From contig JBHHYJ010000002.1 in the NCBI GenBank assembly GCA_046757485.1, positions 8,073-72,072 on the forward strand: DNA of 64,000 nt, read 5' to 3'. The notes below the pieces were generated by a model. It worked only from the letters and a program-made list of their open reading frames with translations, searched no databases and had not been told where the DNA came from. Origin of the DNA: Gemmatimonadota bacterium (lineage in GTDB: Bacteria > Gemmatimonadota > Gemmatimonadetes > Palauibacterales > Palauibacteraceae). Below, in pieces: positions 28,801 to 53,547 of this stretch (the first letter of the stretch is position 1; the number at the start of each line of letters is the position of its first letter). Both the position numbers and the translations under genes were made by a program.

Positions 28801-29151
28801 CCAGACGGCGGAAGTGGACGGGCAACCGCGCCACGAAGCCGTCCCACGCTCGAGCGTTCGCCGGGGACCACCCGACTTCGGCGAGCGCCAGCATCCGGGA
28901 AGGAGCATGTACTCCACCTGGCTCGGCTCCGCCATGTACTCCGTCCACACGTTGCCCTGGGCACCGAGGATGTGCTTCGCCTCCCCCTGCGACAGCTCGG
29001 CCGGAACCGTGGCTCGGCGACGGAGCCGCGCACCCGGCGAGCATCGCGGCCGTCAGCGATCCGACGAACGCGGCGGGGCTTCGTCGCCTCCGGCTCGGTC
29101 TCACGCGGGCGGCCCACGGTGGTTCTTCCACGGGCCTCCAGGGCCCGTCGA

Positions 29152-31722: not shown

Positions 31723-32240
31723 GGACGAACGCTCGAGGCGCCCGGATCCGGCCCGCCTGCCAGGGTGCCGTACGCTCCCCGGAAGTGGACGAGCGGGGCT
31801 CTCGCAGGCTCCTCCGAGGCAGCGGAAGCCGCCCGCACCTGTCCCACGAAGATCGTGTGGTCGCCGGCCGGCACCGCCTGCACGACGGCGCACTCGCAGT
31901 AGGCCAGGGTCCGCGCGAGGAGCGGGGCTCCCGTGACCCCGGGGGTGGCCTCCGCTCCGTCGAACTTGGTCTCCCCCGTCTCGGCGAAGCGCCGGGCCAG
32001 GACCTCCTGCTCCCCGGCCAGCACGTTGATCGCGAAGATGCCGGAGACCTGGATCGCTCGATGGGTGTTCCGCTCGATCTCCAGGCAGGCGAGCACGAGC
32101 GGAGGTGTGAGCGACACGGAGCACACGGCCGTGGCGGTCATTCCGCACGGTACGCCGTCCCCGTCGCGGGAGGTGACCACCACCACACCCCCGGCCAGGT
32201 GGCCCAGAACGCGCCGAAAGCGCTCCGAGGAGATGGACAT
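31719..32240 (-). CDS. Flavin reductase family protein (FMN-binding split barrel)
   Basis: 173 aa. LAGGVVVVTSRDGDGVPCGMTATAVCSVSLTPPLVLACL is the classic flavin-reductase-like domain. Confidence 0.75.
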   Translation of the reverse strand: MSISSERFRRVLGHLAGGVVVVTSRDGDGVPCGMTATAVCSVSLTPPLVLACLEIERNTHRAIQVSGIFAINVLAGEQEVLARRFAETGETKFDGAEATPGVTGAPLLARTLAYCECAVVQAVPAGDHTIFVGQVRAASAASEEPARAPLVHFRGAYGTLAGGPDPGASSVRP

Positions 32241-32309: not shown

Positions 32310-33776
32310 TCAGCCCGCCTCGCCCGCCTCCTCCCCCGCGGCCGCCGCCCGGCGCGCGAGCCAGCCGTTCAGGAACAGGAACGCGGCCAGGGCCAGGGTC
32401 CACTGGATGAGGACGGTGCCCACGTTGAAGGAGGAGAAGAGCGTGAAGCTCCCCGCCAGGTCGGTCCAATCCACCGCCTGCCACAACCACCATCCCATGA
32501 GGACGACCGCCTCCACGATCACGAGACGGATCGCCCAGTTCCACCAGCGGCCCACCCGGAGATCCGCCCCCTCGCCGTTGACGAGCCGTCGCCGGAAGCG
32601 ATCCACGCCGTGCTTCAGCACCAGGAAGGCGAAGAAGAACCCGCACAGCATGAGGCCCACCCCCCACACCCAGTCCTGATTCCGGAAGACCTCCATGAAG
32701 AGGGCGGACGGGAGACCGAGCAGGAACCCGAGGAGGCCCACGGCGAGAATGGCTCGCCGCCGCCCCACCCCCGCGTCCACCAGCACACGCGAGGCAAGCT
32801 CCAGCATGGCGATCAGGCTGCTCCACGCCGCGAAGACGAGCGCCAGAAAGAAGAGGACCATAAAGAACGGTCCGCCCGGCATGTGTCCGAACAGTTGGGG
32901 CACCCACACGAAGGTGAGCCCCTCGTTCCCCGCGCCCACGATCGTGTCGGCCGCGTCCGGCATCAGCGCGAAGACCGTGCACAGCACCATGATCCCGGCG
33001 AGGAGCGAGACCGAGTTGTTCCCGAAGCCGAGGAGGAAGCCGTTGAGCGTCGTGTCCTCCCGCCGACGCAGGTAGATGGCGTACGCCACGATCAGCCCCC
33101 AGCCCGCCCCCGTGTCCCAGGCGTTCTGGGTCAGAGCCTCCAGCCACACGCGGGCGGAGAGCAGATCGCGCCACTCCGGGGTGAAGAGGAACGCGAGCCC
33201 GCGGGAAGCTCCGTCCAGCGTCACGGCCCGGGCGGCCAGAACGATGACCAGAAGAAAGAGGCTGGGGATGAGTATCCGCGTGGCCCGCTCGATCCCCCGG
33301 ACCCCTCGGGCCACCACGGCGACGCCGAGCCCGATCGCGACCGCGTGCGTCCCGACCGCCCATCCGGAGCCCACGTAGCCATCCCAGAACTGCTGGGCCC
33401 GTTCCGGGGAGTGCATCGGAACGCTGCCCAGCAGGGAGCCGGCGAGGTAGCGGATCGTCCATCCCATGACGACCGAGTAGTAGAACATGATCGCGGTCGC
33501 GGTGAAGGCGATCCACGCCCCCATCCAGGCGAACCGGGGGCCCGCCAGCTTCACGAAGACCCCGATCGGGCCGGCACGCGCTCCCTTCCCGGCCGCGAAC
33601 TCGACCAGGATGAGCGGAACGGACCACAGCAGGAGGAAGACGGCCCAGGCGACGAGGAAGGAGCCGCCGCCGTTGGAGGCGGCCACCCGCGGAAACCGCC
33701 AGATGTTCCCCGTTCCCACCGCCATCCCCAGCATGGCGATCATCGTCGCCGATCGCGAAGAGAACCGTTGGCTCAT
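32310..33776 (-). CDS. Sodium-dependent transporter, SNF (neurotransmitter:sodium symporter) family
   Basis: Signature GTGNIWRFP near the N-terminus. About 12 TM helices. Start at M108 of the track ORF, overlapping the upstream stop as ATGA. Confidence 0.85.
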   Translation of the reverse strand: MSQRFSSRSATMIAMLGMAVGTGNIWRFPRVAASNGGGSFLVAWAVFLLLWSVPLILVEFAAGKGARAGPIGVFVKLAGPRFAWMGAWIAFTATAIMFYYSVVMGWTIRYLAGSLLGSVPMHSPERAQQFWDGYVGSGWAVGTHAVAIGLGVAVVARGVRGIERATRILIPSLFLLVIVLAARAVTLDGASRGLAFLFTPEWRDLLSARVWLEALTQNAWDTGAGWGLIVAYAIYLRRREDTTLNGFLLGFGNNSVSLLAGIMVLCTVFALMPDAADTIVGAGNEGLTFVWVPQLFGHMPGGPFFMVLFFLALVFAAWSSLIAMLELASRVLVDAGVGRRRAILAVGLLGFLLGLPSALFMEVFRNQDWVWGVGLMLCGFFFAFLVLKHGVDRFRRRLVNGEGADLRVGRWWNWAIRLVIVEAVVLMGWWLWQAVDWTDLAGSFTLFSSFNVGTVLIQWTLALAAFLFLNGWLARRAAAAGEEAGEAG

Positions 33777-34744
33777 GCGCTGCCCGCCTCGTTCGTAGGT
33801 ACCGAACCCGGGCTCGCCGAGAGCTTGTCGAGCCACGAGGAGAGAATCCGGTTGAACTCTTCCGACATCGAGATGTGGGCGCAGTGGCCGCCGCGGGGCA
33901 TGGGGACGTAGCGGGCTCCCGGAATCCCGGCCGCGATCTCCAGCGACCACTCCGCGGGACAGTAGCTGTCCTCCGATCCCTTGACGACCAGGGTGGGAGC
34001 GGAGATGGAACTCAGCTCCGGCCGCAGGTCCCTGCCTTTCAGGAGATTCACCCGGGCGGTGGAGACGCTCGCCGGCACGGTTCGCGGGCCCGTCCACAGC
34101 GCGTACTCCACCAGCCTCGCCCGGCCGGGAGAATCATCGTAGATCCAAACCGCGAGCCGGCTCCACACGGCCGCGGCCGCGGCGGCGAGGGAGGTGGGAA
34201 GGTAGCGGGTCGTGCCGATCGCCAGGGGCACGAGTGCCGTTCGGTTCAACCCCACGTGGTCGTACGCGACCCTCGCCAGGCTGTTGCACACCACGAGGGC
34301 CCGCACGCGCTCGGGGAAGCGGTACGCGAAGCGCAGAGCGATGGCGCCCCCCAGGCTCTGCCCGACCAGGACGACGGGGCCCGTCTCCAGCCGGTCCATG
34401 AGCTCGGCCAGATCCTCCGTCAGGCGATCGAACGTATGTGTCGGGGTGATCCGCCGTCGAAGGTCGGGGGCGACCGTTCGGTACCGGGCGGCAAAGAGGG
34501 GAAGCTGGAACCGCCACGTTTCCTTCACCCCGTCGGCGCCCGGCACCCACAGGATGGGCGTCCCCTCTCCCGCGTCCACGTAGGCGACGCGCTCTCCATC
34601 GGACAGCTCCAGCTCACCGCCGGGCAGGGGCGTGCGGTCCGCCCAAAGGACGGGCGGCGGAACCAGCGAGCGGTTGCGCCGCAGGATCGTCTTCCCGTAC
34701 GCCACGGCGCTCGCGGCGAGCGCGGCCTTCGTCCAGAGCCTCAA
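33773..34744 (-). CDS. Alpha/beta hydrolase fold protein
   Basis: Nucleophile elbow GQSLGG. The probable TTG start at 34742-34744 is preceded by GGAGG. Upstream codons of the track ORF overlap the M3-like peptidase gene and are rejected. Confidence 0.6.
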   Translation of the reverse strand: MRLWTKAALAASAVAYGKTILRRNRSLVPPPVLWADRTPLPGGELELSDGERVAYVDAGEGTPILWVPGADGVKETWRFQLPLFAARYRTVAPDLRRRITPTHTFDRLTEDLAELMDRLETGPVVLVGQSLGGAIALRFAYRFPERVRALVVCNSLARVAYDHVGLNRTALVPLAIGTTRYLPTSLAAAAAAVWSRLAVWIYDDSPGRARLVEYALWTGPRTVPASVSTARVNLLKGRDLRPELSSISAPTLVVKGSEDSYCPAEWSLEIAAGIPGARYVPMPRGGHCAHISMSEEFNRILSSWLDKLSASPGSVPTNEAGSA

Positions 34745-39926: not shown

Positions 39927-40970
39927 ATGAGACTCCGGCCATCGCCGCGAGCGGCCGAGGATCGCCGGGGCTCCGAAGAGGGGGGGGAGCCGCCGAACGC
40001 CGCCCCGAGTCTCCTGGACGAGGTCCGGGCCCGTTGCGCCGACGTGGCCCGCCGCGCCCGCCACGTCCGGGTGGAACCGCGGCGCGTTCCCGGATACGCC
40101 GCGGAGCTCGCCCAGGCCGCGCTCGCCGGGGGGCGGCCGGAGGTGGATCCCGACAGTCACCACCTGGACCGAGGAGAGGAGACGGTGGCCTTCTTCCTCA
40201 CCCTGGATGCCGTGAACTTCGGCTCCGGCTACTTCCCCCATCTCCGCAAGCGACCCGGTCTCTCCGGCTACTTCACCGTGGCCACCTCCCTCAAGGAGCA
40301 GTTCGAGGAGCACGGGGCGTTCACGGCGGAAGAGCTCACCCGAATCACCGCCGAGGAGTGTGGCCGGATCTTCGGTCAGGCCGGGGCCTCCGGGCCGGTG
40401 GCGGAGCTGATGCGCCTGTTCGCCAACGCTCTCAACGACCTCGGCGTCTGGCTGCTGGACGGCTTCGGGGGAGATTTCATCGGGCCGGTGGCGGCGGCGG
40501 GCGGAAGCGCGGAGCGACTCGTCGAACGCCTGATCGAGATGCCCTACTTCCGGGACGTGTCCCGCCACGACGGATCGGAGGTGCCGTTCTACAAGCGGGC
40601 CCAGATCACCGCCGCCGACCTCCACTTCGCCTTCGGGGGAGAGGGAGCGGGCGAGTTCACGGATCTGGACCGCCTCACGATCTTCGCCGACAACCTCGTC
40701 CCGCACGTGCTGCGGGTGGACGGACTGCTCACGTATGCCCCGGCGCTGGCCGCGCGGGTGGACGCGGAGGAGCTGATCCCTCCCGGGTCCTCCGAGGAGA
40801 TCGAGATCCGGGCCTGCGCGCTCCACGCGGTCGAGCTCCTCGTGCGCGAGCTCGACGGCGGGTCGGACCCTGTGAACGCCATGCGGCTCGACTACCTTCT
40901 GTGGAACCGGGGCCAGGGGGCCGGCTACAAGGCACGCCCCCGCCACCGGACGCGCACCGTCTATTACTGA
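39927..40970 (+). CDS. DUF2419-like protein (possible queuosine-salvage Qng1-family hydrolase), low-confidence family call
   Basis: 347 aa, cytoplasmic. Blocks FFLTLDAVNFGSGYFP and FYKRAQITAADLHFAF and a C-terminal ...TRTVYY recall the DUF2419 family. I cannot confirm without a search. Confidence 0.4.
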   Translation: MRLRPSPRAAEDRRGSEEGGEPPNAAPSLLDEVRARCADVARRARHVRVEPRRVPGYAAELAQAALAGGRPEVDPDSHHLDRGEETVAFFLTLDAVNFGSGYFPHLRKRPGLSGYFTVATSLKEQFEEHGAFTAEELTRITAEECGRIFGQAGASGPVAELMRLFANALNDLGVWLLDGFGGDFIGPVAAAGGSAERLVERLIEMPYFRDVSRHDGSEVPFYKRAQITAADLHFAFGGEGAGEFTDLDRLTIFADNLVPHVLRVDGLLTYAPALAARVDAEELIPPGSSEEIEIRACALHAVELLVRELDGGSDPVNAMRLDYLLWNRGQGAGYKARPRHRTRTVYY

Positions 40971-41673: not shown

Positions 41674-43053
41674 ATGGCTGCCATGAAGACGATCATCGAG
41701 CCGTTCCGAATCAAGAGCGTCGAGCCGATCCGCATGACCTCGCGGGAGGACCGCGAGGCGCTGATTCGTGGAGCCGATTACAACGTTTTCCGGCTGCCCG
41801 CCCGCGACGTGATCATCGACTTCCTCACCGACAGCGGCACGGGGGCGATGAGCGCCAACCAGTGGGCGGCGGTCATGCGAGGTGATGAGTCGTACGCGGG
41901 CAGCGAGAGCTTCTATCGTTTCGAGGCCGCGGTCCGGGAGATCTTCGGCTTCAAGCACGTGATCCCCACCCACCAGGGCCGGGCCGCCGAGCGGATCCTC
42001 TTCAGCACGGTGTGCCGGGCCGGCGATGTCGTCCCGAACAACACGCACTTCGACACCACGAGGGCCAACATCGAGTTCACGGGTGCGGAAGCTCTCGACC
42101 TGCCCTGCCCGGAGGCCAGGGAGATCGGAACGCCCCACCCGTTCAAGGGGAACATCGATCTGGAGGGGCTCGAGGCGACGATCCGGGAACGACGGGAGAG
42201 AATCCCGCTCGTCATGCTGACGATCACGAACAACTCCGGCGGCGGGCAGCCCGTCTCGCTGGCGAACGTCCGGGCCACGGCCGAGCTGTGTCACGCCCAC
42301 GACATCCCGCTGTACATCGACGCCTGTCGCTTCGCGGAGAACGCCTACTTCATCCGCCGGCGGGAGGACGGATACGGAGAGAAAAGCTACCTCCAAATCG
42401 CCCGGGAGATCTTCTCCCACGCGGACGGCTGCACGATGTCCGCCAAGAAGGACGGGCTGGCGAACATCGGGGGCTTCCTGGCCACCAACGACGACCGCCT
42501 GGCGCGCCGGGAGGAGGAGCTGCTCATCCTGACCGAGGGTTTCCCCACCTACGGGGGGATGGCGGGGCGCGATCTGGAGGCGATCGCCGTGGGGCTCTAC
42601 GAGGTGCTGGAGCCAGACTATCTGGAGTATCGGGCCGCCTCCTCCCACTACCTGGGACGTCACATCGCCGAGGGGGGAGTCCCGATCGTCCAACCGCCGG
42701 GCGGTCACGCCATCTACATAGACGCCGCCGCCTTCTGTCCCCAGATCCGTCCGCTCCACTTCCCCGGCATCGCGCTCACGGTGGAGCTCTACCGGGAAGC
42801 CGGAATCCGGAGCGTGGAGATCGGGAGCGTGATGTTCGGCTCGGCGGACCCGGAGACCGGGGAGGCCGTCCCGGCCCGCCAGGAGCTCGTGCGCCTGGCG
42901 ATCCCCCGCCGCGTCTACACCCAGAGCCACGTGGACTACGCCGTGGAGGCGATCCTGTCCGTGTACGGGCGCCACGACGCCCTCCGGGGCTTCCGCCTCG
43001 TGGAGGCGCCCCCGGTCCTCCGGCACTTCACCGCTCGCTTCGAGCCGCTGTAG
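41674..43053 (+). CDS. Tryptophanase / tyrosine phenol-lyase family beta-eliminating lyase (PLP-dependent)
   Basis: 459 aa, collinear with E. coli TnaA. EPFRIKSVEPI, DLLTDSGTGAMS, IPTHQGRAAE and SAKKDGLANIGGFL (PLP-Lys). Confidence 0.85.
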   Translation: MAAMKTIIEPFRIKSVEPIRMTSREDREALIRGADYNVFRLPARDVIIDFLTDSGTGAMSANQWAAVMRGDESYAGSESFYRFEAAVREIFGFKHVIPTHQGRAAERILFSTVCRAGDVVPNNTHFDTTRANIEFTGAEALDLPCPEAREIGTPHPFKGNIDLEGLEATIRERRERIPLVMLTITNNSGGGQPVSLANVRATAELCHAHDIPLYIDACRFAENAYFIRRREDGYGEKSYLQIAREIFSHADGCTMSAKKDGLANIGGFLATNDDRLARREEELLILTEGFPTYGGMAGRDLEAIAVGLYEVLEPDYLEYRAASSHYLGRHIAEGGVPIVQPPGGHAIYIDAAAFCPQIRPLHFPGIALTVELYREAGIRSVEIGSVMFGSADPETGEAVPARQELVRLAIPRRVYTQSHVDYAVEAILSVYGRHDALRGFRLVEAPPVLRHFTARFEPL

Positions 43054-43145: not shown

Positions 43146-44444
43146 TCAGCCGCGGCTCAGCGCCCCGACGACCTCGCCCAGCGCCGCCATCGCCTCCCGG
43201 AGCTGGTCGTCGCACAGATACGGCGCCGGCCCGAGACGCAGGAGCTCGCCCCGGTGATCGGTTCGGACGTCCCGCTCGCGAAGGAGCCGGGAGATCTCCG
43301 CGGCCCGGGGGCTCCGGAGGGCCAGGAAGCCGCCGAGCTCCCCGAGATCCATTGAGCGGTCGCGGCGGATGAGGCGGGGGTCGGCGTCCAGCTCATCGAA
43401 CCGCTCGGCGAGGAGCCCCACCTGGTGCTGGCTCACCTCGCGCAGGAACTCCGGTGCGAGTCCCTCCTCCTCGCAGAAGGCGAACACCTCGGCGGCCCGG
43501 TAGTGGCTCGTCGGATCGTACGTGCTCCCGGCGAACCGGTCCGGTCCGCGGCCGTACACGACGGGGGTCGGGCCCTGGTCGGCCCCCTCCTCCCGCTCCG
43601 TGCTCGTCCCGCGCTCCAGGGCGCCGTCGGGGCCGGAGGGGGGACGCCCACGGCCTGCCAGCGGCGCTCCGCGCGTCCCTTCCAGGGCGCCGAACTCGCT
43701 GAACCAGCCGGTGATCGCGGGGCGGAACTCCCGGCCGGTCGGAAAGCGGAGGAAGCAGTTCCCCTCTCCGAGCTGGCAGTACTTGTAGCCCCCGCCCACC
43801 ACGAACGCGCCCTCCAGGCCCTCCCCCCCGAGCGACAGGGGCACGGCGTTCAGGGAGTGGTAGGCGTCCATCAGCAGCTCCGCCCCCCTCCGCTCGCACG
43901 CCCGGGCGACCTCGCCCAGGCCCCGCACGATGCGGGCGTCCTCGTAGAAGACGGAGGAGACGAGGGCGGCCGCCGTCCGGTCGTCGATCCGCTCGGCGAG
44001 GCGGGTGGCGACCGTGCTTACCGGATCGCGGCTCACCCTGACCACCTCGAGGCCCTCCTCCGCCAGCCGGTCGAGCTGGCGCCGAATCGTGTGGAACTCC
44101 CCGTCCGTCGTGACGAGCCTCGGCCGCTCCCGGAGGGGGCAGGCGGAGAGGAAGCGGACCACGAGGTCGTGCGTGCTGGAGGCGAGCGCGATCCGGTCCG
44201 CCGAATCGCCCAGCAGGCGGGCGAACCCGGCGCGCACCCGGGCCGCCCGCTCGAACGCCCGCTCCCACTTCTCGTCCACGCACTCCGCCGCGTCCTCCCA
44301 TGCCCGCCGCTGGCCCTCGAACCCCCGGTCGGGCCACGCCTGGTGGGAATGGCCCGTCAGCAGCAGCCGCTCCTGCACCCGGAAGGCGGAGTAGTGGGGC
44401 GCCAGCGCGTTCGGACGCCGATAGAGATCCTCCGGGCTCCGCAC
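43146..44444 (-). CDS. kynU: Kynureninase (aminotransferase class V fold)
   Basis: Collinear with Pseudomonas kynureninase (LMDAYHSLNAVPLSL, GGYKYCQLGEG, C-terminal ...LRLGPAPY...). The GTG start at about 44444 is preceded by GAGG. The upstream 300 codons of the track ORF overlap the TDO gene and are rejected. Confidence 0.75.
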   Translation of the reverse strand: MRSPEDLYRRPNALAPHYSAFRVQERLLLTGHSHQAWPDRGFEGQRRAWEDAAECVDEKWERAFERAARVRAGFARLLGDSADRIALASSTHDLVVRFLSACPLRERPRLVTTDGEFHTIRRQLDRLAEEGLEVVRVSRDPVSTVATRLAERIDDRTAAALVSSVFYEDARIVRGLGEVARACERRGAELLMDAYHSLNAVPLSLGGEGLEGAFVVGGGYKYCQLGEGNCFLRFPTGREFRPAITGWFSEFGALEGTRGAPLAGRGRPPSGPDGALERGTSTEREEGADQGPTPVVYGRGPDRFAGSTYDPTSHYRAAEVFAFCEEEGLAPEFLREVSQHQVGLLAERFDELDADPRLIRRDRSMDLGELGGFLALRSPRAAEISRLLRERDVRTDHRGELLRLGPAPYLCDDQLREAMAALGEVVGALSRG

Positions 44445-44455
44445 GGCATCCCGCC

Positions 44456-45295
44456 TCACAGCTGGGTGCGAATCTCCCACAGGTCCGGGAAGAGGGGGCG
44501 GAAGATCCGCCTCTTCAGGTACTCGACGCCGCTCGTCCCGCCCGTTCCCCGCTTCGCGCCGATCGTCCGCTCCACCATCTTCACGTGCCGGTAGCGCCAC
44601 TCCTGAAGGCCCTCGTCCAGGTCCACCAGCCGCTCGCACAGCTCGGCGGCCGCGGGGTTCTCCCGGTACACGTCGATGAGCACGCCCTGCAAGCCGGGCG
44701 ACGGCTCGACGGGGCGGGTCACGTCGCGGCCCAGGAGCTCCTCCGGGACCGCGTACCCCTCGCCCGCCAGGTAGTGGAGGAAGGCGTCCCACAGGGTCGG
44801 CTCCTCCAAGCGGCGCTCGAGCACCGCCCGGGCCTCGCCCCCCTCGGGGTAGCGCTCGAAGACCCTCTTGTCCTTCAGGCCGAGGAGGAACTCGAGCTCC
44901 CGGAACTGCCGGGACTCCAGCCCGCTGGCCGCCTCCAGCCGCTCCCGGAAGGCGAGGAACTCCAGCGGCGTCATCGTCTCCAGGATGTCGAGCTGCGAGA
45001 CGAGGACCTTCAGGATCGTCAGGACTCGCTTCATCGTGTGGAGGGCCGGGGCCGTCGCATCCCCTTCCAGGAGGCGGCAGGCGTACTCCAGCTCGTGCAG
45101 CAGCTCCTTGAACCACAGCTCGTACACCTGATGGATCACGATGAACAGCATCTCGTCGTGATCCCGGCCTCCGGAGCGCGGCTGCTGGAGGGCGAGGAGC
45201 TCGTCCAGCTTCAGGTAGCCGGAGTAGGTCAAATACTTCGAGCCGCCTCCGCCGTCCGTCTCGTCTCGACCGGCCATCTCCGTCTCCCCGCTCAT
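44456..45295 (-). CDS. kynA: Tryptophan 2,3-dioxygenase
   Basis: YLKLDELLALQ, EMLFIVIHQVYELWFK and RLLEGD blocks. Start at M39 of the track ORF (MSGETEM...), overlapping the upstream stop by 1 nt (TGATG). Confidence 0.8.
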   Translation of the reverse strand: MSGETEMAGRDETDGGGGSKYLTYSGYLKLDELLALQQPRSGGRDHDEMLFIVIHQVYELWFKELLHELEYACRLLEGDATAPALHTMKRVLTILKVLVSQLDILETMTPLEFLAFRERLEAASGLESRQFRELEFLLGLKDKRVFERYPEGGEARAVLERRLEEPTLWDAFLHYLAGEGYAVPEELLGRDVTRPVEPSPGLQGVLIDVYRENPAAAELCERLVDLDEGLQEWRYRHVKMVERTIGAKRGTGGTSGVEYLKRRIFRPLFPDLWEIRTQL

Positions 45296-47574
45296 CAGTA
45301 TCCCCACTCGAAGCGAGGCGTGTAGTCGTCCAGCACGGAGTAGGGGAGGGGCCACGGGAGGTCGTAGCCCAGCGCGTACGCCGCATGGCGCGTCCAGTAG
45401 GGATCCCACAGGTGGGCGCGCGCCAGGCAGCAGAGGTCCGCCCGCCCGGCCGCCAGGATCGTGTTCACGTCCATGAAGGAGGAGATGTTGCCCACCGCCA
45501 TCGTGTGGATCTCCGCCTCGTGCCGGATCCGATCGCTGAACGGCGTCTGAAACTGCCGTCCGTAGCGTGGCTTCGCGTACGGTACCGTCTGGCCGGCCGA
45601 GACGTCCACGATGTCACACCCGTGCGCCTTGAGCATCCGGGCGACCTCGACCGCGTCCTCCGCCTCCATCCCACCCGGAGCCCAATCCACGGCGGAGATG
45701 CGTACGGAGAGCGGCTTGCGCGCCGGCCACACCGTCCGAACGGCGTCCAGAACCTCCAGCGGAAACCGCATCCGGTTCTCCAGGGGGCCGCCGTACTCGT
45801 CCGTGCGGATGTTGGTGAGGGGGGAGATGAAGCTCGCGAACAGGTAGCCGTGCGCGAAGTGGATCTCGACGAGATCGAAGCCCGCCTCCTCCGCCATGCG
45901 GGTGGCCCGAACGAACTCCTCCCGCACGCCCTCCATGTCGTCCCGGTCCATCTCTCGCGGAACGGGGCTGTGGGGATAGTATGGCACGGGCGAGGCGGCG
46001 ATGATCGGCCAGCCCCCTACCTCCAACGGCTCGTCGATCCCCTCCCAGGCGAGTCTCGTCGAGCCCTTCCGGCCCGCGTGCCCGAGCTGGAGGCCGATCT
46101 TGGCATAGCTGTTCTCGTGGACGAAGCCGACGATGCGGCGCCATGCTTCCACGTGCTCGGGTCGATACATGCCGGCGCACCCGGGCGAGATCCGGCCTTC
46201 CCGACTCACGTCCGTCATCTCGGTGCACACGAGGCCCGCGCCCCCGATCGCCCGGCTGGCGAGGTGGACGAAGTGCCATTCGTTCGGCAGCCCGTCCTCG
46301 GCCAGATACTGGCACATCGGCGAGACGACGACCCGGTTGGCCAGCACGAGATCCCGGAGCTTGAATGGGGTGAAGAGCGGCGGGGGCGGAGGGTTCTCGG
46401 GCCCGGCCACCCCCGTCTGCTCGCTCGCACGACGGGCCACCCACTCGTCCACGCTCGCGGTGAAGGCCGGATCCCGGAGCTGGAGGTTCGAGTGGGTGAT
46501 CCGCAGGCTGCGGGTGAGGATGTTGAAGGCGAACTGGGTCGGCTCGGTCTGCATGTAGCGCTCCGTCCCCTCGAACCACTGAAGGCTCGCGTGGGCGGCG
46601 CGCTGCAGGCTCTCCACGCCAGGCCGACGTTCCTCCTCGTAGGAGGCGAGGGCGGCCGGCACGTCGTGACGGTGTTCGGCGAGCGCCTCCGCGAGCGCGA
46701 TCGCGTCGAGCATTGCCATGCGCGTGCCGGAACCCACGGAGAAGTGCGCCGTGTGGGCCGCGTCCCCCACCAGCACGACGTTGCCGTGCGACCAGCGCTC
46801 CGTGGAGACGGTGGGAAACTGCCGCCAGATGGACCGGTTCGCGATCAGATCGTGCCCCTCGAGCTCCGCGGCGCACAGGGCCTCGCAGAAAGCGAGCGTC
46901 TCCGTCTCGTCGGCCTCGCCCAGCCCGGCCGAGCGCCACGTTTCCTCTCGAGCCTCGACGATGAGGGTGGAGCTCGCCTCCCCGTCGCGGGCCGGCTCGT
47001 ACTGGTAACAGTGCACCCGCCACAGCCCGTGGGCGTCTTCCTTGAAGTAGAAGGTGAAGGCGGGAAACGGCTTCGTAGTCCCGAGCCACACGAACCGGTT
47101 CGGCCGCCGGTCGATCACGGGCCGGAACTCCACGCGGTACAGCTCCCGAACGGCGCTGTTCACGCCGTCGGCGCCCAGGATGAGGTCCGCATCGGCAAAC
47201 GGAGCCAGCTCCGTGACCTCTGTCTCGAAACGGAGCTCGACCCCCAGCTCCTCGCACCGCCGGTTCAGAATCTCGAGCAGCGTGAGGCGCGCCAGGCCGG
47301 CGAAGCCGTGGCCCGTGGAGCTGAGCACCCGGCCCCGATAGTGGATGTCGATGTCGTCCCAGTGGTAGAACTCCCGGGTGATCGCCTCGAAGGTGGGCGA
47401 ATCCGCCTCCTTCAGCTCCTCCAGGGTGGCGTCGGAGAAGACGACCCCGAAGCCGTACGTGTCGTCCCGGGCGTTTCGCTCCAGGACGAGGATCTCGTGG
47501 GACGGGTCCGCCTTCTTCATCAGGATCGCGAAGTAGAGCCCGGCAGGCCCTCCGCCCACGCTGACGATCCTCAC
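45295..47574 (-). CDS. Bifunctional FAD-monooxygenase / Old-Yellow-Enzyme reductase fusion (2-aminobenzoyl-CoA monooxygenase/reductase-like, also annotated in databases as salicylyl-CoA 5-hydroxylase/oxidoreductase)
   Basis: 759 aa. N-terminal [18 protein letters not shown] and GDAAHT flavin-monooxygenase motifs. C-terminal OYE TIM barrel ([51 protein letters not shown]). Confidence 0.8.
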
Positions 47575-48821
47575 GGCCGCTCTCCGGCCTCCGTGCCGTC
47601 GGGGCTCTGGGGCCGAACGGTGCCACCCCGGGCAGGCTCCGTGCCTCCGGCCGCCTCGTCATCCTCCCGATCCGCGGCCGCCGCCTCGATCAGCCCCTTG
47701 GCGATGATGAGCCGCTGGATCTCCGTCGTGCCTTCGTAAATCCGGAGGGCGCGGACGGAGCGGTACAGACGGTCGAGGGGGTTCTCCTTCAGCACCCCCC
47801 TCCCCCCCAGGATCTGCACCGCGTCATCCACGATCCGCTGGGCCGCCTCCGTGGCGAACGCCTTCGCCATGGAGGCCTCCGTCGCGGTTCGGTCGGCCCC
47901 GGCGTCCGTCTCCCAGGCCGCCCTGTAGACGAGGAGACGCGCGGCGGCCAGCTCGGTGGCCATCCGTGCGAGCTTCTCCTGCACGATCTGGAAGCGGGCC
48001 AGGGGGCGGCCGAACTGCTCGCGGCGCGAGGCGTGGCGCACGGCTTCCCGCAGAGCCCGAGCCGCCATCCCGCACGCGGCGGCCCCGACGGTGGGCCGCA
48101 GGCGCTCCAGGGTGAGGATCCCGATCCCGAACCCCTCTCCCTCCGCGCCCAGCCGGTCCGAGGCAGCCACCCGGCACCCATCCAGCTCGATCTCTCCGAG
48201 AGGGTGGGGCGCGGAGAGGACCTGTGCCTTCACGAAGCGCAGACCGGGCGCGTCCGCGGGGACGACGAAGCAGGTGATGCCCCGTCGACCGTCGTCGGGG
48301 TCCGTGGTGGCGAACGTCACGTAGAAGTCGGCGATCCCGGCGTTGGAGATGAGCGTCTTCCGCCCCGAGAGAACGTACTCGTTCCCGTCGCGGCGCGCCG
48401 TCATCCGAAGAGAGGCGACGTCGGATCCGGCCTCCGGCTCCGTCATCGCGAAGGCGGCCATCAGCGTCCCCTCCAGGAGCCCGGGAAGCCAGCGGTCTCG
48501 CAGGGCTTCGTTCCCAGCCAGCAGGAGCGGCGTTCCTCCGAGGGTCTGAAGCGCGAAGACGGCGTCGGCGAGCGGCGAGGCGGCGGCCAGCGCCTCCCGG
48601 ATGAGGCAGCAGGCCCGGAAGTCCTGCTCCGCGATCGGGGCGTACCAGCCGCCCGCGCCCAGCCGGCTCAGGATCTCCCGGGCCTGGCGGCGGGCCTCGG
48701 CGTCGTCGGCCGGCTCCGGACGGCCCGCGAGCTCCTGGCTGACGAGCTCGCCGATCCGCTCCGCGAGCTCCACGTGGCGTGGCTCCAGGAAGGCGCGCAC
48801 CGGCCGGATCGAGGGAACCAC
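47571..48821 (-). CDS. Acyl-CoA dehydrogenase
   Basis: [33 protein letters not shown] and [18 protein letters not shown] start at 48819-48821 preceded by GGAAGGAG. ATGA overlap with the downstream gene. Confidence 0.85.
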
Positions 48822-48844
48822 GGACGTCTCCTTCCCGGGCGGCG

Positions 48845-49714
48845 TCAGACGAACTCCGCGTCCCGCTTCGTCACGAACGCCTCGTATGCCTCCCGGAAGT
48901 TCTGGTTCTGCATGCAGATGGCCTGGACCTGCGCCTCCGCCTCCAGGGCGCTGGCCAGATCCATCGAGGCCTCCCGGTTCAGCGCGTCCTTCGTGATCTC
49001 CAGGGCGAAGGAGGGGCCGCGGGCCAGCTTTTCCGCCAGGGACCGCGCCTCCTCCTGAAGCCGCTCCGCCGGTACCACCCGGTTGTAGAGGCCGATCCTC
49101 AGCGCCTCGGCGGCGTCGATGAAGTCGCCCGACATGAGGAGCTCCGTAGCGCGGCCCAGCCCGACGATGCGGGGGAGGAGCCAGGAGGCGCCCATGTCGG
49201 CCCCCGAGAGCCCGACGCGGGTGAACAGGTAGGCGATCTTCGCCGTCTCCGCGGCGATCCGCACGTCGCACGCCGTGGCGATCACCGCCCCCGCGCCTGC
49301 CACCGTGCCGTTCAGGGCCGCCACCACCGGGCGTCGGCAGCGGCGGATCGCGAGGATCAGGTCGCAGGTCAGCCGGGTGAACTCCAGGAGCCCCTCGTAG
49401 TCCCGCTCGAAGAGGGGGCCGATGATCTCCTCCACGTCGCCGCCGGAGCAGAACGCCCGACCCGCGCCCGTGATCACGACTGCCCGTACGCCGGGCTCCG
49501 TGTCCAGGGCGCGGAAGGTGTCCCGGAGCTCCGCGTAGACCTCGAAGGTCAGCGCGTTCAGCCGCTCCGGGCGGTTCAGGGTGATCGTCGCCACGGAGCT
49601 GTCGGGGTCCTTTTCGTACAGGAAAGAGCGGGGTGTCAGCACGTTCCCTCTCCGTTGGTTCGCCGGCTCTCTTCCGGCGCCGGCCTCTCGCGCCGGTCTC
49701 GTTCGCGTCCTCAC
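48845..49714 (-). CDS. Enoyl-CoA hydratase/isomerase (crotonase) family protein
   Basis: ITGAGRAFCSGGDV and AALNGTVAGAGAVIATACDVRIA are crotonase oxyanion-hole motifs. Confidence 0.85.
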   Translation of the reverse strand: MRTRTRPAREAGAGREPANQRRGNVLTPRSFLYEKDPDSSVATITLNRPERLNALTFEVYAELRDTFRALDTEPGVRAVVITGAGRAFCSGGDVEEIIGPLFERDYEGLLEFTRLTCDLILAIRRCRRPVVAALNGTVAGAGAVIATACDVRIAAETAKIAYLFTRVGLSGADMGASWLLPRIVGLGRATELLMSGDFIDAAEALRIGLYNRVVPAERLQEEARSLAEKLARGPSFALEITKDALNREASMDLASALEAEAQVQAICMQNQNFREAYEAFVTKRDAEFV

Positions 49715-49787
49715 GTGCCCGGCGGCCGGCGGGCCGCGTCCGCCGGGCCCTCCTCCCTCCCGGGCGAGCTGGCGAAGGACTCCGGCG

Positions 49788-50189
49788 CTACGGCACGACC
49801 GCGGTCGCCTCGATCTCCAGCAACGCCTCCTCGTCTGCCAGCCCCTTCACCTCCACGAGCGCCATGGTGGGGTAGTGCCGATCCATCAGCCGGCGGTAGG
49901 CTACGCCCAGCGCCCTGCGGTTCCCCAGGTACTCCTCCAGGTCCGTGACGTACAGCGTGAGGCGCCCGATGTCCGCCGGTTCCCCGCCCGCCTCTCGGAC
50001 GACGGCCACGACCTTCGAGAGAGCCCGCTCGAACTGCTCCACCAGGCCGAAGGTGCGGACGACGCCGTCCGCGTCGCTCGCCGTCTGCCCGGCGACGAAC
50101 AGGAGGCGCCCGGGCGCCGTCGTCAGGAGACCGTGGTTCCAGCCGCGGGGGGTCCCCAGCGGTTCCGGGTTGATGATGCGGTATCTCAC
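49788..50189 (-). CDS. RidA/YjgF family enamine/imine deaminase
   Basis: 133 aa. LLFVAGQTA...VVRTF...RLTLYVTD...VEVKGLA is the RidA fold signature. Confidence 0.8.
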   Translation of the reverse strand: MRYRIINPEPLGTPRGWNHGLLTTAPGRLLFVAGQTASDADGVVRTFGLVEQFERALSKVVAVVREAGGEPADIGRLTLYVTDLEEYLGNRRALGVAYRRLMDRHYPTMALVEVKGLADEEALLEIEATAVVP

Positions 50190-50247
50190 TCGAGCCTCGC
50201 TTCCTGGACGGGGTCTCCCGCCGGTCGACCGGGGTGACGCGGCTCCC

Positions 50248-51078
50248 TCACTCGTCCGGCGCCACCCCGCCGTCCGGTCCGGCCGCCGATCCGTCTCCCA
50301 TGACGATGGCCTCCCCGTTCGTTCGGCCGCCCTCCTCGCCGCACAGGGCGAGGACCGCCCTGGCGACCTCCGCCGGGGAGAGGAGCCGGGACTGGCCCGC
50401 GGCCCGCAGGATCGCCTCCCGCGCCTCCTCCTCCGTCCTCCCGGTCTTCCGCACGATGCGGCGGACGGACTCTCGGGTCATCTCCGTGTCCACGTAGCCC
50501 GGGCACACGGCGTTCACGGTCACCCCGGTTCCCTCGACCTCCGCCGCGGCGCAGCGCGTGAGGCCGACGACGGCGTGCTTCGAGGCGGCGTACGCCGCGA
50601 TGTAGGGCGCCCCCCCGAGACCCGCCACGGACGCCACGTTCACGATCCGCCCCCGGCCCCGCTCCACCATGCGGGGCAGGAAGGCGCGGAGGACGAGGAA
50701 CGTCCCCGTCGCGTTCACCGCGAGCGTCCGGTTCCACTCCTCGAGCGTCAGACCCGTCACCGGGGCGGAGCCCGCCACCCCGTGGCTGTTCACCAGGATC
50801 TCCACCCGGCCCACGAGCTCGGCCGCCTCCCCCGCCAGGCTCCGCACGCTGGCCGGGTCCGTCACGTCGCAGCGGACCGCCGCCGCTACGTCACCGCGCT
50901 CGCGCAGCTCGGCGGCCACCCGCTCGATCTCCTCCTCCGTGCGGGCCGCGACCACGACCGCGGCTCCGGCGCCGGCCAGCTCCCGGGCGACCGCCGCACC
51001 GATCCCCCGGCCCCCGCCGGTGACAACGGCCCCGCGCCCCGCGAGCCTCCCGTCGAGGGCTCCGCGCGCCCCGCTCAC
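50248..51078 (-). CDS. SDR family oxidoreductase (3-hydroxyacyl-CoA/3-oxoacyl reductase-like)
   Basis: TGGGRGIGAAVA (cofactor motif), NSHGV and YAASKHAV (YxxxK). ATGA overlap with the upstream gene. Confidence 0.85.
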   Translation of the reverse strand: MSGARGALDGRLAGRGAVVTGGGRGIGAAVARELAGAGAAVVVAARTEEEIERVAAELRERGDVAAAVRCDVTDPASVRSLAGEAAELVGRVEILVNSHGVAGSAPVTGLTLEEWNRTLAVNATGTFLVLRAFLPRMVERGRGRIVNVASVAGLGGAPYIAAYAASKHAVVGLTRCAAAEVEGTGVTVNAVCPGYVDTEMTRESVRRIVRKTGRTEEEAREAILRAAGQSRLLSPAEVARAVLALCGEEGGRTNGEAIVMGDGSAAGPDGGVAPDE

Positions 51079-51884
51079 GGCCCCCCTCCCGCTCCCCCCT
51101 TCCGTCTCCCTTCGCCTCCGCCTCCCACGGAACGATCGATCTCCGCCCGCACGGCCTCCGCCAGGATCTCGCCCAGCCGCTCGATCGTGCGCCGGCCCTC
51201 CGCCTCCGTGGCCTCGGCCGGAGCGCCGAAGTACGCGCGCGGGCCGCCCGCCTCCTCGAAGCTCGCCTTCCCGTCCCGAATCGCCTCGGAGAGAGAGACC
51301 GGGTTAGGGGGAAGCTCCCGGCACACCGCCTCCCGCACGAGCTCCGGCCGCCGGGCGAGGACGATCGAGGTCTCGTACCGACCGGCGTGGCAGGCTCCGC
51401 TCCGGAACTCCTCCGTCAGCCGGAGCGCCCACGGCTTCCGGGTGAGGTCGGGGAAGACGACCCGCGCTCCGGCCTCCCGCCGCGCCTCCTCGGCGCCCGT
51501 CCGGAGCGCCGCGAGGTGGGCCGGGTCCAGGTGCGCGTTGGCGATCGCCAGGTGCCCGATCCCGTGCCGGGCGAGCCCGCGGGCGACCTCGGCCACGAGG
51601 GCACTCACCGTCGCGGGGCGCGCCGAGATCGTCCCGGGGAACCCGGCGCCGAACTCCGCCGCCGTGTACGCCAGCGGGGGGAGAAGGAGCGGCTCGAATC
51701 CCTCGCCGGCCAGTCGCTCCGCCGCCGCCTCGGCCATCGCCTCGGCGATCAGGACGTCCGTGCCCAGGGGGAGGTGCGGGCCGTGGGCCTCTACCGCTCC
51801 CACGGGCAGGACCGCCACCGCCCGCGACCGATCCCGGTCCCGGAGCTCCTCCCAGGTCATCTCGAACAGCCTCGACACCGGCAT
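51075..51884 (-). CDS. Creatininase / ArfB-family amidohydrolase (candidate formamidase)
   Basis: VLPVGAVEAHGPHLPLGTDVLIAEA and GHLAIANAH..RYETS are creatinine-amidohydrolase-fold motifs. First gene of the minus-strand catabolic operon. Confidence 0.75.
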   Translation of the reverse strand: MPVSRLFEMTWEELRDRDRSRAVAVLPVGAVEAHGPHLPLGTDVLIAEAMAEAAAERLAGEGFEPLLLPPLAYTAAEFGAGFPGTISARPATVSALVAEVARGLARHGIGHLAIANAHLDPAHLAALRTGAEEARREAGARVVFPDLTRKPWALRLTEEFRSGACHAGRYETSIVLARRPELVREAVCRELPPNPVSLSEAIRDGKASFEEAGGPRAYFGAPAEATEAEGRRTIERLGEILAEAVRAEIDRSVGGGGEGRRKGGAGGGP

Positions 51885-51942
51885 CGCGCGGCCCCCGTCT
51901 CCCGTTGCCCGTCATTCTAGCCGCGGAGTATCATCCGGCACC

Positions 51943-53547
51943 ATGCCGTTCTCGCCACCCCCAGCGTTCAACATCGCCGACCACTTCCTCGACGCCCGCA
52001 TCCGCGAGGGCCGGGGCGGCCGGACGGCGATCCTGACGGACGACGGCCGCCTCACGTACGCCGACGTCCAGGCGCTCGCCCACCGGTTCGGGAACCTCCT
52101 GCGCGCGGCCGGCGTGGCCCCGGAGCAGCGGGTCCTCCTCGCCCTGCCGGACGGCCCGGCGTTCGTCGGCGCGCTTTTCGGCGCGCTGAAGATCGGCGCG
52201 GTGGCCGTGATGCTGAACCCGGAGCTCAGGCCCGCGGAGATCGAGCAAGTGTGCGGCTACACGCGGGCCGTGGCCGTGGTCACGTGGCCCGGGGGCCGGG
52301 AGGCGTTCGAGGCGGCCGCGCGCGGGTCCGGGCCGCGGACGATCCTGGTGGCGGGGGACGCCGGGTTCGAAGCCGATCTCGCTGCCGCGTCCCCCGAGCT
52401 CGAGGGCTTCCCGACCCACCGGGACGACGCGGCGATCTGGCTCTTCTCCGGCGGCACGACGGGCCGTCCCAAGGCGGTCATCCAGTCTCACGCCTCCTTC
52501 GCGAACACGACGGAATGCTACGCGAAAGGCGTGATCGGGTACGGCGAGGAGGACATCACCCTCTCCGTTCCGAAGCTGTACTTCGGCTACGCCACCGGCT
52601 CGAACCTCTTCTTCCCGTTCGCCGTCGGCGGGGCGACCGTCCTCTTTCCCGAGCGGTGCACGGCGGAAGGCCTGTTCGACAGGATCGAGCGTTTTCGGCC
52701 GACGATCCTGGTGAACGTACCGACCATGGTCCAGCGGATGGTCGGCCACCCGGACGCCGCGGGCCGCGACCTCTCCTCCCTGCGGCTGGCCACCTCCGCC
52801 GGCGAGGCGCTGGCGGCGGATCTCCACCGCCGCTGGGCGGAGACGTTCGGCGTGGAGCTCCTGGACGGGCTCGGGACGGCCGAGATGTGGCACATCTTCC
52901 TCTCCAACCGGCCGGACGAGGTCCGTCCGGGCACCCTGGGGCGGGCGGTCCCCGGCTTCGACGTGCGGGTCCGGGATGAGGAGGGGCGGGACCTCCCCCC
53001 GGGCGAGGTCGGGTGGCTGTGGGTGCGGGGCCGGTCGCGGGCCATCGGCTACTGGCAACGGATGGAGCAGACGATGGAGGCGTTCCGGGGCGAGTGGTAC
53101 GTCTCCGGCGATATGGTCCGGCGGGATGCGGACGGGTACTTCACCTACTGCGGCCGGGGGGACGACATGCTGAAGGTCTCCGGCAAGTGGCTCTCCCCCG
53201 TGGAGGTGGAGGAGTGTCTCCTCGAGCACCCGGCCGTCCGGGAGGTCGCGGTGGTCGGCGTCGTCGGTCCGGACGGGCTCACGAAGCCGCACGCCTACGT
53301 CGTCCCGGCTGTGTCGCGGGAGGAGGGCAGTGGAGCGTCGGGGGAAGCCGGAGGCGTGCGGGAGGAGGCCCGGGAGGCGCTCGAGGGGGCCGGCGCGGAG
53401 CTCGAGGAGGAGCTCCAGGCGTTCGTCAGGGAGCGATTGGCCCCGTACAAGTACCCCCGCCGGGTGATCTTCGTGGAGGCGCTCCCGCGGACCCACCTGG
53501 GCAAGGTGGACCGGGGGCGCATCCGGAGGACGGGCGGGCCGGCGTAG
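51943..53547 (+). CDS. Benzoate-CoA ligase family protein (AMP-forming; candidate 2-aminobenzoate-CoA ligase)
   Basis: ATG at 51943. N-terminal FNIADHFLD...GRTAI...TYADVQ is typical of the benzoate-CoA ligase family. AMP-binding motifs (FSGGTTGRPKAV, YRTGD-like WYVSGD, PRTHLGKV). Divergent from the catabolic operon. The upstream 660 codons of the track ORF are rejected. Confidence 0.85.
   Translation: MPFSPPPAFNIADHFLDARIREGRGGRTAILTDDGRLTYADVQALAHRFGNLLRAAGVAPEQRVLLALPDGPAFVGALFGALKIGAVAVMLNPELRPAEIEQVCGYTRAVAVVTWPGGREAFEAAARGSGPRTILVAGDAGFEADLAAASPELEGFPTHRDDAAIWLFSGGTTGRPKAVIQSHASFANTTECYAKGVIGYGEEDITLSVPKLYFGYATGSNLFFPFAVGGATVLFPERCTAEGLFDRIERFRPTILVNVPTMVQRMVGHPDAAGRDLSSLRLATSAGEALAADLHRRWAETFGVELLDGLGTAEMWHIFLSNRPDEVRPGTLGRAVPGFDVRVRDEEGRDLPPGEVGWLWVRGRSRAIGYWQRMEQTMEAFRGEWYVSGDMVRRDADGYFTYCGRGDDMLKVSGKWLSPVEVEECLLEHPAVREVAVVGVVGPDGLTKPHAYVVPAVSREEGSGASGEAGGVREEAREALEGAGAELEEELQAFVRERLAPYKYPRRVIFVEALPRTHLGKVDRGRIRRTGGPA

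Follow-up and report, generated by a model that had tools for sequence, protein, structure and literature searches.

Locus and gene content

We analysed a stretch of 64,000 nucleotides from a Gemmatimonadota bacterium (contig JBHHYJ010000002.1), hereafter the window. At positions 43146-53547 it holds eight successive minus-strand genes and one divergent plus-strand gene, as read from the GC3 frame plot and start mapping. We read this locus as a probable self-contained aerobic cluster for tryptophan catabolism, composed of three modules that are found apart in other genomes.

The window contains 70% G+C, and at this composition six-frame lists of open reading frames (ORFs) are uninformative. 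Genes were called from third-position GC (the GC3 frame plot) together with start-codon mapping. Gene identities come from Pfam and NCBIfam model scores, read against the cutoffs of the models. An earlier reading of this DNA, the original prediction, had listed eight minus-strand genes and a divergent CoA ligase. Frame plot, Pfam and NCBIfam confirm this list, coordinates included. Family-level gene identities, operon structure and the conservation of gene set and order are established; the substrates and the order of the lower steps we infer. The genes and the spacer between the two transcription units are the following.

51943-53547, plus strand: aryl-CoA ligase (LIG, 534 aa); TIGR02262, 465.9 bits against a cutoff of 375.25
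51885-51942, between the divergent genes: intergenic region of 58 nt with back-to-back promoter-like elements and a conserved motif
51075-51884, minus strand: creatininase-family metal amidohydrolase (CREAT, 269 aa), first gene of the operon; PF02633, 199 bits
50248-51078, minus strand: short-chain dehydrogenase/reductase (SDR, 276 aa); adh_short, 208 bits
49788-50189, minus strand: Rid/L-PSP family protein (133 aa); PF01042, 58.8 bits
48845-49642, minus strand: crotonase-family enoyl-CoA hydratase/hydrolase (ECH, 265 aa; alternative start 49714); NF006107 (PRK08258), 386.8 against 330 bits
47571-48821, minus strand: acyl-CoA dehydrogenase (ACAD, 416 aa); all three ACAD domains
45295-47574, minus strand: fusion of a FAD monooxygenase with an old yellow enzyme (OYE) reductase (ACMR, 759 aa); NF006101, 1131 against 1078 bits
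44456-45295, minus strand: tryptophan 2,3-dioxygenase (TDO/KynA, 279 aa; alternative start 45277); PF03301, 221 bits
43146-44444, minus strand: divergent kynureninase-like class-V enzyme dependent on pyridoxal phosphate (PLP) (kynU-like, 432 aa); family profile against 1QZ9

The original prediction described an operon coupled by ATGA and TGATG overlaps. The run of eight minus-strand genes stands, but only three of its seven junctions overlap: GTGA between creatininase and SDR, GTGA between ACAD and fusion gene, and TGATG between fusion gene and TDO. The other four are gaps of 11, 23, 58 and 145 nt, the shortest lying between TDO and the kynU-like gene. No regulator gene is encoded in the cluster.

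Conservation and modules

We scanned species-representative genomes with the creatininase-family protein and fetched 80 loci (individual loci are cited below by L numbers). This marker occurs in at least 517 species-level genomes, and the fetched loci span Gemmatimonadota, Eisenbacteria, Planctomycetota, Acidobacteriota and Myxococcota. All nine genes stand in the window's order in 22 of the 37 loci with enough flanking sequence, in several phyla including Gemmatimonadota and Eisenbacteria. The same order recurs in L003-L007, in these 22 loci and in numerous metagenome contigs, which is far beyond what chance would produce.

Not every locus is complete, and the variants show where the cluster comes apart. 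TDO is followed directly by the kynU-like gene in 34 of 38 loci, and 56 of 66 loci show the creatininase-family and ligase genes in head-to-head orientation. Some loci contain only the upper part, that is TDO, kynU, ligase and creatininase (L025, L027, L045). In others the TDO-kynU pair is located upstream of the ligase (L047, L073, L105, L124). The divergent ligase-creatininase pair occurs alone in five of 37 loci, and such lone pairs are found in Myxococcota and Planctomycetota. Six loci keep the creatininase-family gene with the ligase while all lower-pathway genes are absent (L025, L027, L046, L066, L069, L080). Conversely, L038 and L075 combine the full lower pathway and the creatininase-family gene with no TDO or kynU within 10 kb. 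Finally, TDO-kynU pairs that stand alone have no conserved third neighbour. Together, the locus variants and the adjacency counts support separable modules, three in number.

A related arrangement lies on plasmid 2 of the cultured Gemmatimonadota species Gemmatirosa kalamazoonensis (L010, 12001-18313). This unannotated record contains an ACMR homologue (54.6% identical) with an SDR and a crotonase about 3 kb downstream. In the 18 kb examined there is no match to TDO, kynU, the creatininase-family gene or the ligase.

The fusion protein and the lower pathway

The 759-aa fusion protein has a FAD_binding_3 domain in its N-terminal half (best stretch 128-324) and an Oxidored_FMN domain at residues 400-733 (Pfam). 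We compared it and its companions with proteins of Paracoccus, Ralstonia, Thalassospira, Sagittula and the Arthrobacter plasmid pAL1. The fusion protein shares 53-54% identity with its homologues in Paracoccus, in Ralstonia and on pAL1. Identity to the pAL1 protein is 53%, and the pAL1 protein adjoins an experimentally verified anthranilate-CoA ligase (PMC3534580). In the strain that carries pAL1, this ligase activity was shown experimentally and anthraniloyl-CoA and downstream CoA esters were detected, with CoA esters consistent with hydroxyanthraniloyl-CoA and cyclohexanedione-carboxyl-CoA (PMC3534580). The original prediction had likened the fusion to 2-aminobenzoyl-CoA monooxygenase/reductase. 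The two domains, the similarity to the pAL1 protein and companions of the type found in 2-aminobenzoyl-CoA (abm) clusters all agree with this, and we assign the protein this predicted function. We found no full-length solved structure for it.

The companions point the same way. The window SDR is 40-53%, the ECH 52-54% and the ACAD 44-53% identical to their counterparts in proteobacterial abm clusters. In Paracoccus denitrificans and Ralstonia the cluster around the fusion homologue contains an SDR, a PRK08258-type crotonase, an ACAD, a Rid protein and an AMP-ligase. Overall, a core of six genes (ligase, ACMR, SDR, ECH, ACAD and Rid) matches the abm-type clusters of Paracoccus, Ralstonia and Thalassospira. 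Identity of the core to the Paracoccus, Ralstonia, Thalassospira and Sagittula proteins is 40-54%, except for the ligase (32-34%).

Gene fusions in related loci suggest an order for the lower pathway. On the Ralstonia solanacearum megaplasmid a three-domain coding sequence of 1044 aa joins ACMR and SDR (L009, 10001-13132); it is annotated simply as 'bifunctional salicylyl-CoA 5-hydroxylase/oxidoreductase'. At least 11 related loci have SDR and Rid joined in a single ORF of about 390 aa: L007 (10798-11964), L014, L023, L032, L038, L052, L060, L063, L064, L070 and L081. These fusions suggest that ACMR, SDR and Rid catalyse successive steps in the 2-amino-5-oxocyclohexenecarbonyl-CoA series. Next, the crotonase may hydrate the ring or open it hydrolytically, by analogy with the crotonase-family ring hydrolases of the benzoyl-CoA pathway. 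ACAD would act on the crotonase product.

Between ACAD and the fusion gene, two related loci carry an extra ORF of about 480-490 aa (L038, 14617-16092; L075, 14243-15691), of which only the C-terminal half matches Oxidored_FMN. Similar gaps between these two genes are seen in L013, L015, L052 and L063.

The Rid protein lies below the canonical model of its family (TIGR00004, 41.7 bits against a cutoff of 106). The arginine that binds the substrate carboxylate is replaced by methionine in the window protein and in five of six aligned Rid proteins from related clusters, and by valine in L005; the position was read against an E. coli reference sequence. The missing arginine fits a CoA-thioester substrate with an enamine or imine better than it fits an imino acid. 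We regard the Rid protein as a putative enamine/imine deaminase for the product of ACMR.

The original prediction counted the Rid gene as a non-standard addition, which it is not. The clusters of Paracoccus, Ralstonia, Thalassospira, Sagittula and Arthrobacter pAL1 all contain a Rid orthologue, which makes Rid a regular part of abm clusters. In addition, the description of the Azoarcus cluster by Schuhle et al. in 2001 is said to list a gene for a 'putative translation inhibitor' (Rid family). Our literature searches found no paper on Rid in the anthraniloyl-CoA pathway.

Tryptophan dioxygenase and a divergent kynureninase

TDO aligns to PDB 2NOX with 208 bits, and the distal His, the Arg, the proximal His and the Thr are conserved in this alignment. 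Taken with the PF03301 score, this upholds the naming of the gene as kynA. The protein scores 292 bits on TIGR03036, under the equivalog cutoff of 391. By this alignment, it is a clear relative, or orthologue, of the solved bacterial TDOs.

The kynU-like protein is more divergent. It reaches 21.8 bits on KYNU_C, below the cutoff of 27, and has weak matches to cysteine desulfurases. A profile built from 22 sequences of the kynU-like family, however, aligns over the full length of Pseudomonas fluorescens kynureninase 1QZ9 (residues 14-400, E=1.7e-14), while the same profile matches cysteine desulfurases at about 3e-4 or weaker. Invariant motifs of the family are Y-K (with the PLP lysine), D..H and R.GP.PY, so that the PLP lysine and the arginine for the substrate carboxylate are in place. 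TDO is located directly upstream of the kynU-like gene in nearly every locus with enough upstream sequence, including loci without abm genes. We also considered a cysteine desulfurase or selenocysteine lyase and rejected it, because the profile favours kynureninase by about ten orders of magnitude and because of the adjacency to TDO. We therefore accept the protein as a divergent member of the kynureninase family on the strength of profile and motifs. For the gene name kynU in the original prediction this means that fold, motifs and TDO adjacency hold, but that the enzyme is non-canonical. Homologues number in the thousands, mostly in Gemmatimonadota, and are named kynureninase, cysteine desulfurase or hypothetical protein.

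Related loci contain further variants. An intermediate type of kynureninase, which shares 35% identity with the window protein and passes KYNU_C with 30.8 bits, occurs in L069 (6851-8122, minus strand), L041 and L068 (Planctomycetota). The copy in L069 is the next gene downstream of the ligase and stands opposite a 151-aa ORF to which no family was assigned and which is followed by a creatininase-family gene. In a stand-alone TDO-kynU locus, a 213-aa ORF without a Pfam match overlaps the start of TDO (L002, 7415-8056); this ORF recurs in one other locus only (start of L106).

The CoA ligase and its promoter-like region

The best solved relatives of the ligase are the benzoate-CoA ligases 2V7B and 4EAT and the anthranilate-CoA ligase 4WV3 (349 bits). 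Its identity to the ligases encoded in proteobacterial and actinobacterial abm clusters is just 32-34%. By this measure it is non-orthologous to AbmG, the ligase of the proteobacterial abm clusters, and belongs to a branch of the benzoate-CoA ligase family. A Streptomyces ligase whose gene adjoins a TDO and a kynU-like gene shares 47% identity with it. Reading its specificity from context, we regard it as a probable anthranilate-CoA ligase.

Between 42.9 and 54 kb we find a single sigma-70-like match. It is located on the plus strand at 51905-51934 (TTGCCC-18-TATCAT) and ends 8 nt before the ATG of the ligase. A -10-like box this close to the start codon suggests a leaderless or near-leaderless ligase mRNA. 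The spacer between ligase and creatininase-family gene has a median length of 66 nt across loci and shrinks to 8-11 nt. The motifs TAGAAT...GGTCAACC and GATGATAC recur in these spacers (intergenic regions of loci L003-L090).

A candidate formamidase

The pathway of the original prediction needs a formamidase, yet the prediction overlooked that its gene list held no such gene and gave the creatininase-family gene no role. A cyclase-type KynB is absent from the cluster according to Pfam. The KynB motif HxGTHxDxPxH does not occur in the window or in 97 loci, 1.57 Mb in total. With no known kind of formamidase in the cluster, the creatininase-family protein is the best candidate.

Its metal-ligand and catalytic residues E32, H34, D43, H118, H166 and E171 align to the corresponding residues of creatininase (1J2T/1Q3K) and are invariant in 18 homologues; compared with 1Q3K, a Tyr is changed to Leu beside a metal-binding His. 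The protein shares fold, binuclear-metal and catalytic residues with the known PF02633 amidohydrolases (creatininase, MftE, ArfB and IolN), but stays under every curated subfamily cutoff: 93 against 235 bits for creatininase (TIGR04448), 111 against 172 for MftE (TIGR03964) and 45 against 245 for IolN (NF041098). Pairing with an aryl-CoA ligase is undescribed for the characterised members. The creatininase family already includes a formamide hydrolase, the archaeal ArfB. We tentatively propose, at somewhat less than even chances, that the protein represents a new, non-orthologous class of aryl-formamidase that supplies the ligase and acts on either N-formyl substrate. Our literature searches found no paper on a creatininase-family formamidase.

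The co-occurrence data complicate this proposal. A strict rule that the creatininase-family gene accompanies the kynurenine genes failed: the gene tracks the ligase and not TDO or kynU. The pairing of the modules, TDO with kynU-like and creatininase with ligase, suggests a reordered upper pathway. Here the kynU-like enzyme would cleave N-formylkynurenine to N-formylanthranilate and alanine, and the creatininase-family protein would remove the formyl group before CoA activation. Both reactions appear in the KEGG map of tryptophan metabolism. The reordered route is one way to reconcile a formamidase with a gene that follows the ligase, although we consider it unlikely.

We also looked for an alternative formamidase as a third conserved neighbour of stand-alone TDO-kynU pairs and did not find one. 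Insertions that separate TDO from kynU in Eisenbacteria and elsewhere encode kinases, channels and transporters, not hydrolases.

Other lineages may have solved the problem differently. The Thalassospira cluster contains a divergent alpha/beta hydrolase, 61% identical to one in an Azospirillum kynU-kynA-hydrolase operon. It is also 30-34% identical to the alpha/beta hydrolase that adjoins meqE among the quinaldine genes of pAL1, which we take to be N-acetylanthranilate amidase. It seems that different lineages have filled one 'aryl-amide hydrolase' slot with non-orthologous enzymes.

Comparison with known systems

The chemistry of the abm pathway has been reviewed (PMC4539516). With the Azoarcus evansii abm pathway and the abm-type clusters of Paracoccus, Ralstonia and Cupriavidus the window shares the fusion protein of about 87 kDa, the SDR, crotonase, ACAD, Rid protein and an aryl-CoA ligase. 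Unlike these clusters, the window has no MarR regulator, thioesterase or ABC transporter, and its ligase comes from a branch other than the AbmG type (32-34%). It adds a creatininase-family gene, TDO and a kynureninase-like gene.

A parallel for the whole arrangement is found on plasmids of cultured Alphaproteobacteria with genomes in RefSeq. Thalassospira marina (pCSC3H3), Sagittula stellata E-37 and a Roseivivax species carry kynA and kynU within ACMR operons. The logic is the same, with kynurenine genes in an ACMR operon that also encodes Rid, SDR, ECH, ACAD and a ligase. The gene order differs, however, and these operons contain an AbmG-type ligase, MarR and a thioesterase. In place of the creatininase-family gene they have an alpha/beta hydrolase or no hydrolase. 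Their KynU is canonical in Thalassospira (TIGR01814, 289 bits), whereas the window protein has no match to this model. Here the operon was assembled independently, in another order and from non-orthologous kynU and ligase genes, which is convergent evidence that both routes work together. The original prediction called the joining of kynurenine and anthraniloyl-CoA genes non-standard. This is overstated: hundreds of uncultured genomes carry the fusion of the two routes, and cultured Thalassospira, Sagittula and Roseivivax have assembled it independently. Our literature searches found no paper describing such fused operons.

Compared to the bacterial KynA-KynB-KynU pathway, the window shares TDO and the kynureninase fold with its catalytic residues. 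It differs in the divergent kynureninase and in the absence of a cyclase-type KynB from the cluster, and its product would pass to a CoA ligase instead of anthranilate dioxygenase.

The sdg system of Streptomyces uses a fusion protein of the same family, and the curated model bears the name of the sdg enzyme. In contrast, the window contains no gentisate-pathway genes and its companions are abm-type. Another Streptomyces system shares a different part of the cluster. The enediyne-type cluster of Streptomyces sp. Mg1 (pSMg1-3; L094, 10279-13979) has the ligase divergent from a TDO-kynU-like pair in common with the window, at 47% identity for the ligase, 47% for TDO and 57.5% for the kynU-like protein. 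Its context is biosynthetic (enediyne-chromoprotein), without ACMR, lower pathway or creatininase-family gene. The non-canonical kynureninase family is therefore common to catabolic and biosynthetic contexts.

The proposed pathway and its alternatives

The route would start with TDO and the divergent kynureninase, which together would convert tryptophan to anthranilate (or N-formylanthranilate) and alanine. The creatininase-fold amidohydrolase would remove the formyl group, and the enzyme of the benzoate-CoA ligase family would activate anthranilate to 2-aminobenzoyl-CoA. With O2 and 2 NADH, ACMR would then hydroxylate and reduce the ring to 2-amino-5-oxocyclohex-1-ene-1-carbonyl-CoA. SDR, Rid (enamine/imine hydrolysis with release of ammonia), crotonase (hydration or ring opening) and ACAD would lead to aliphatic CoA esters. 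The original prediction had traced the same line from tryptophan through anthranilate and 2-aminobenzoyl-CoA to steps resembling beta-oxidation. Homology and synteny agree with it; the formamidase step is the part that it overlooked.

Several observations weigh against this reading. The functions of all proteins are predictions from sequence and gene context, and the organism is an uncultured metagenome-assembled genome. The pathway is incomplete in cis, because the cluster contains neither a thiolase nor a 3-hydroxyacyl-CoA dehydrogenase. The model that the fusion protein passes, NF006101, is named 'bifunctional salicylyl-CoA 5-hydroxylase/oxidoreductase', and the closest solved relatives of the ligase are benzoate-CoA ligases. 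The kynU-like protein has no match to the curated kynureninase model TIGR01814 at E<=0.001. Lastly, the creatininase-family gene accompanies the ligase alone in five of 37 loci and persists in the two clusters without nearby TDO or kynU (L038 and L075), and TDO-kynU pairs stand alone without a creatininase-family gene nearby. These occurrences link the gene to the ligase and therefore not specifically to the kynurenine genes.

A model named for salicylate could mean that salicylate is broken down here by way of salicylyl-CoA and gentisyl-CoA, following the Streptomyces sdg system, with the fusion protein as salicylyl-CoA 5-hydroxylase. NCBI gives homologues this name as well. However, the name is non-discriminating, because PGAP applies it equally to the anthranilate-pathway protein of pAL1, which stands next to the verified anthranilate-CoA ligase (PMC3534580). 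The model check proposed with the original prediction is thus passed without telling the two substrates apart. JGI names the homologues anthraniloyl-CoA monooxygenase. Neither in nor beside the cluster is there a gentisate 1,2-dioxygenase, a (gentisyl-CoA) thioesterase or a salicylate-AMP ligase, and the ECH, ACAD, SDR and Rid companions are abm-type. TDO and the kynureninase-like gene, which would form anthranilate, are part of the same operon and conserved with it. From this genomic context and the shared PGAP name we reject the salicylate/gentisate reading as highly improbable. A further idea is that TDO, kynU-like, ligase and creatininase-family genes serve the biosynthesis of a secondary metabolite derived from anthranilate rather than catabolism. 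The module of the Streptomyces sp. Mg1 enediyne-type cluster, the lone ligase-creatininase pairs of Myxococcota and Planctomycetota and the solved relative 4WV3, an anthranilate-CoA ligase, would fit it. Yet these genes share an operon with ACMR and genes of the beta-oxidation type, both in the window and in 22 of the 37 related loci, and no polyketide synthase, nonribosomal peptide synthetase or tailoring genes are nearby. We regard this alternative as very unlikely.

Alternatively, the two sets of genes could be unlinked neighbours, with TDO and kynU serving, for example, NAD synthesis. The TDO-kynU-like pair does occur alone in other genomes. But the junctions are tight (TGATG between ACMR and TDO, 11 nt between TDO and kynU), gene order is conserved across phyla, and the same association was assembled independently in Alphaproteobacteria. 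Moreover, kynurenine 3-monooxygenase and 3-hydroxyanthranilate dioxygenase, which NAD synthesis needs, are absent from the cluster and the adjoining sequence. Hence we give this explanation hardly any credence. A last alternative concerns the creatininase-family protein only, which could act in the lower pathway, either as a ring-opening hydrolase similar to IolN (which acts on diketo-inositol) or as an amidase on a ring-opened amide. PF02633 includes IolN, a C-C ring hydrolase, and the window protein matches its model NF041098 weakly (45 bits). The GTGA overlap couples the gene translationally to the SDR, and clusters without nearby TDO or kynU (L038, L075) retain it. However, proteobacterial and actinobacterial abm clusters, which depend on an identical lower pathway, lack the gene: the plasmid collection contains no close homologue of it although 527 of its records hold an ACMR homologue. 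In addition, the gene accompanies the ligase in the six loci devoid of lower-pathway genes. A lower-pathway ring hydrolase or amidase is thus disfavoured, and we think it rather improbable.

Neighbouring genes

A beta-eliminating lyase of the tryptophanase family (459 aa) lies next to the operon:

41674-43053, plus strand: NF009709, 677 bits against a cutoff of 285

It is convergent with the operon end and stays below the equivalog cutoffs of TnaA and tyrosine phenol-lyase. The adjacency of lyase and operon is seen only in L001 and L019. Possibly the lyase is an accessory gene, a second and independent tryptophan-cleaving enzyme beside the kynurenine route; its membership in the cluster is uncertain.

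Some 9-11 kb from the operon are a sodium:neurotransmitter-symporter (SNF/NSS) transporter (32310-34097, minus strand) and a flavin reductase (31719-32240, minus strand). The NSS family has bacterial members that transport tryptophan. The first 24 kb of the window contain three multicopper-oxidase genes (1417-3141, plus strand; 10439-12505, minus strand; 22425-23543, minus strand) together with a cytochrome c and a ZIP-like transporter. Two genes are related to queuosine: a QueG-like epoxyqueuosine reductase (27691-28950, minus strand) and a queuosine salvage protein (39927-40970, plus strand).

Implications

The route from tryptophan through kynurenine and anthranilate to anthraniloyl-CoA is already recognised; the enzymes used here are unusual. 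Distinctive of this cluster are the divergent kynureninase, the non-AbmG ligase, the creatininase-fold candidate formamidase and the order that fusions suggest for the lower pathway. This way of degrading tryptophan is missing from an automated pathway-annotation tool, left out 'due to a lack of knowledge' (PMC9007349).

In the field, what follows 2-aminobenzoyl-CoA monooxygenase/reductase has been unsettled ever since this enzyme was first reported. The cluster family, widespread in Gemmatimonadota and other soil phyla, offers a minimal conserved gene set for the whole route, and the ACMR-SDR and SDR-Rid fusions predict which enzymes are consecutive. It also offers candidates for two non-canonical upper enzymes, a divergent kynureninase family and a creatininase-fold formamidase. 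Annotation would gain as well: the fusion protein is now named for salicylate, and the kynU-like protein is often called 'hypothetical' or 'cysteine desulfurase'. Beyond the annotation of single genes, the cluster is relevant to the use of an aromatic amino acid by soil bacteria that are abundant but rarely grown in culture.

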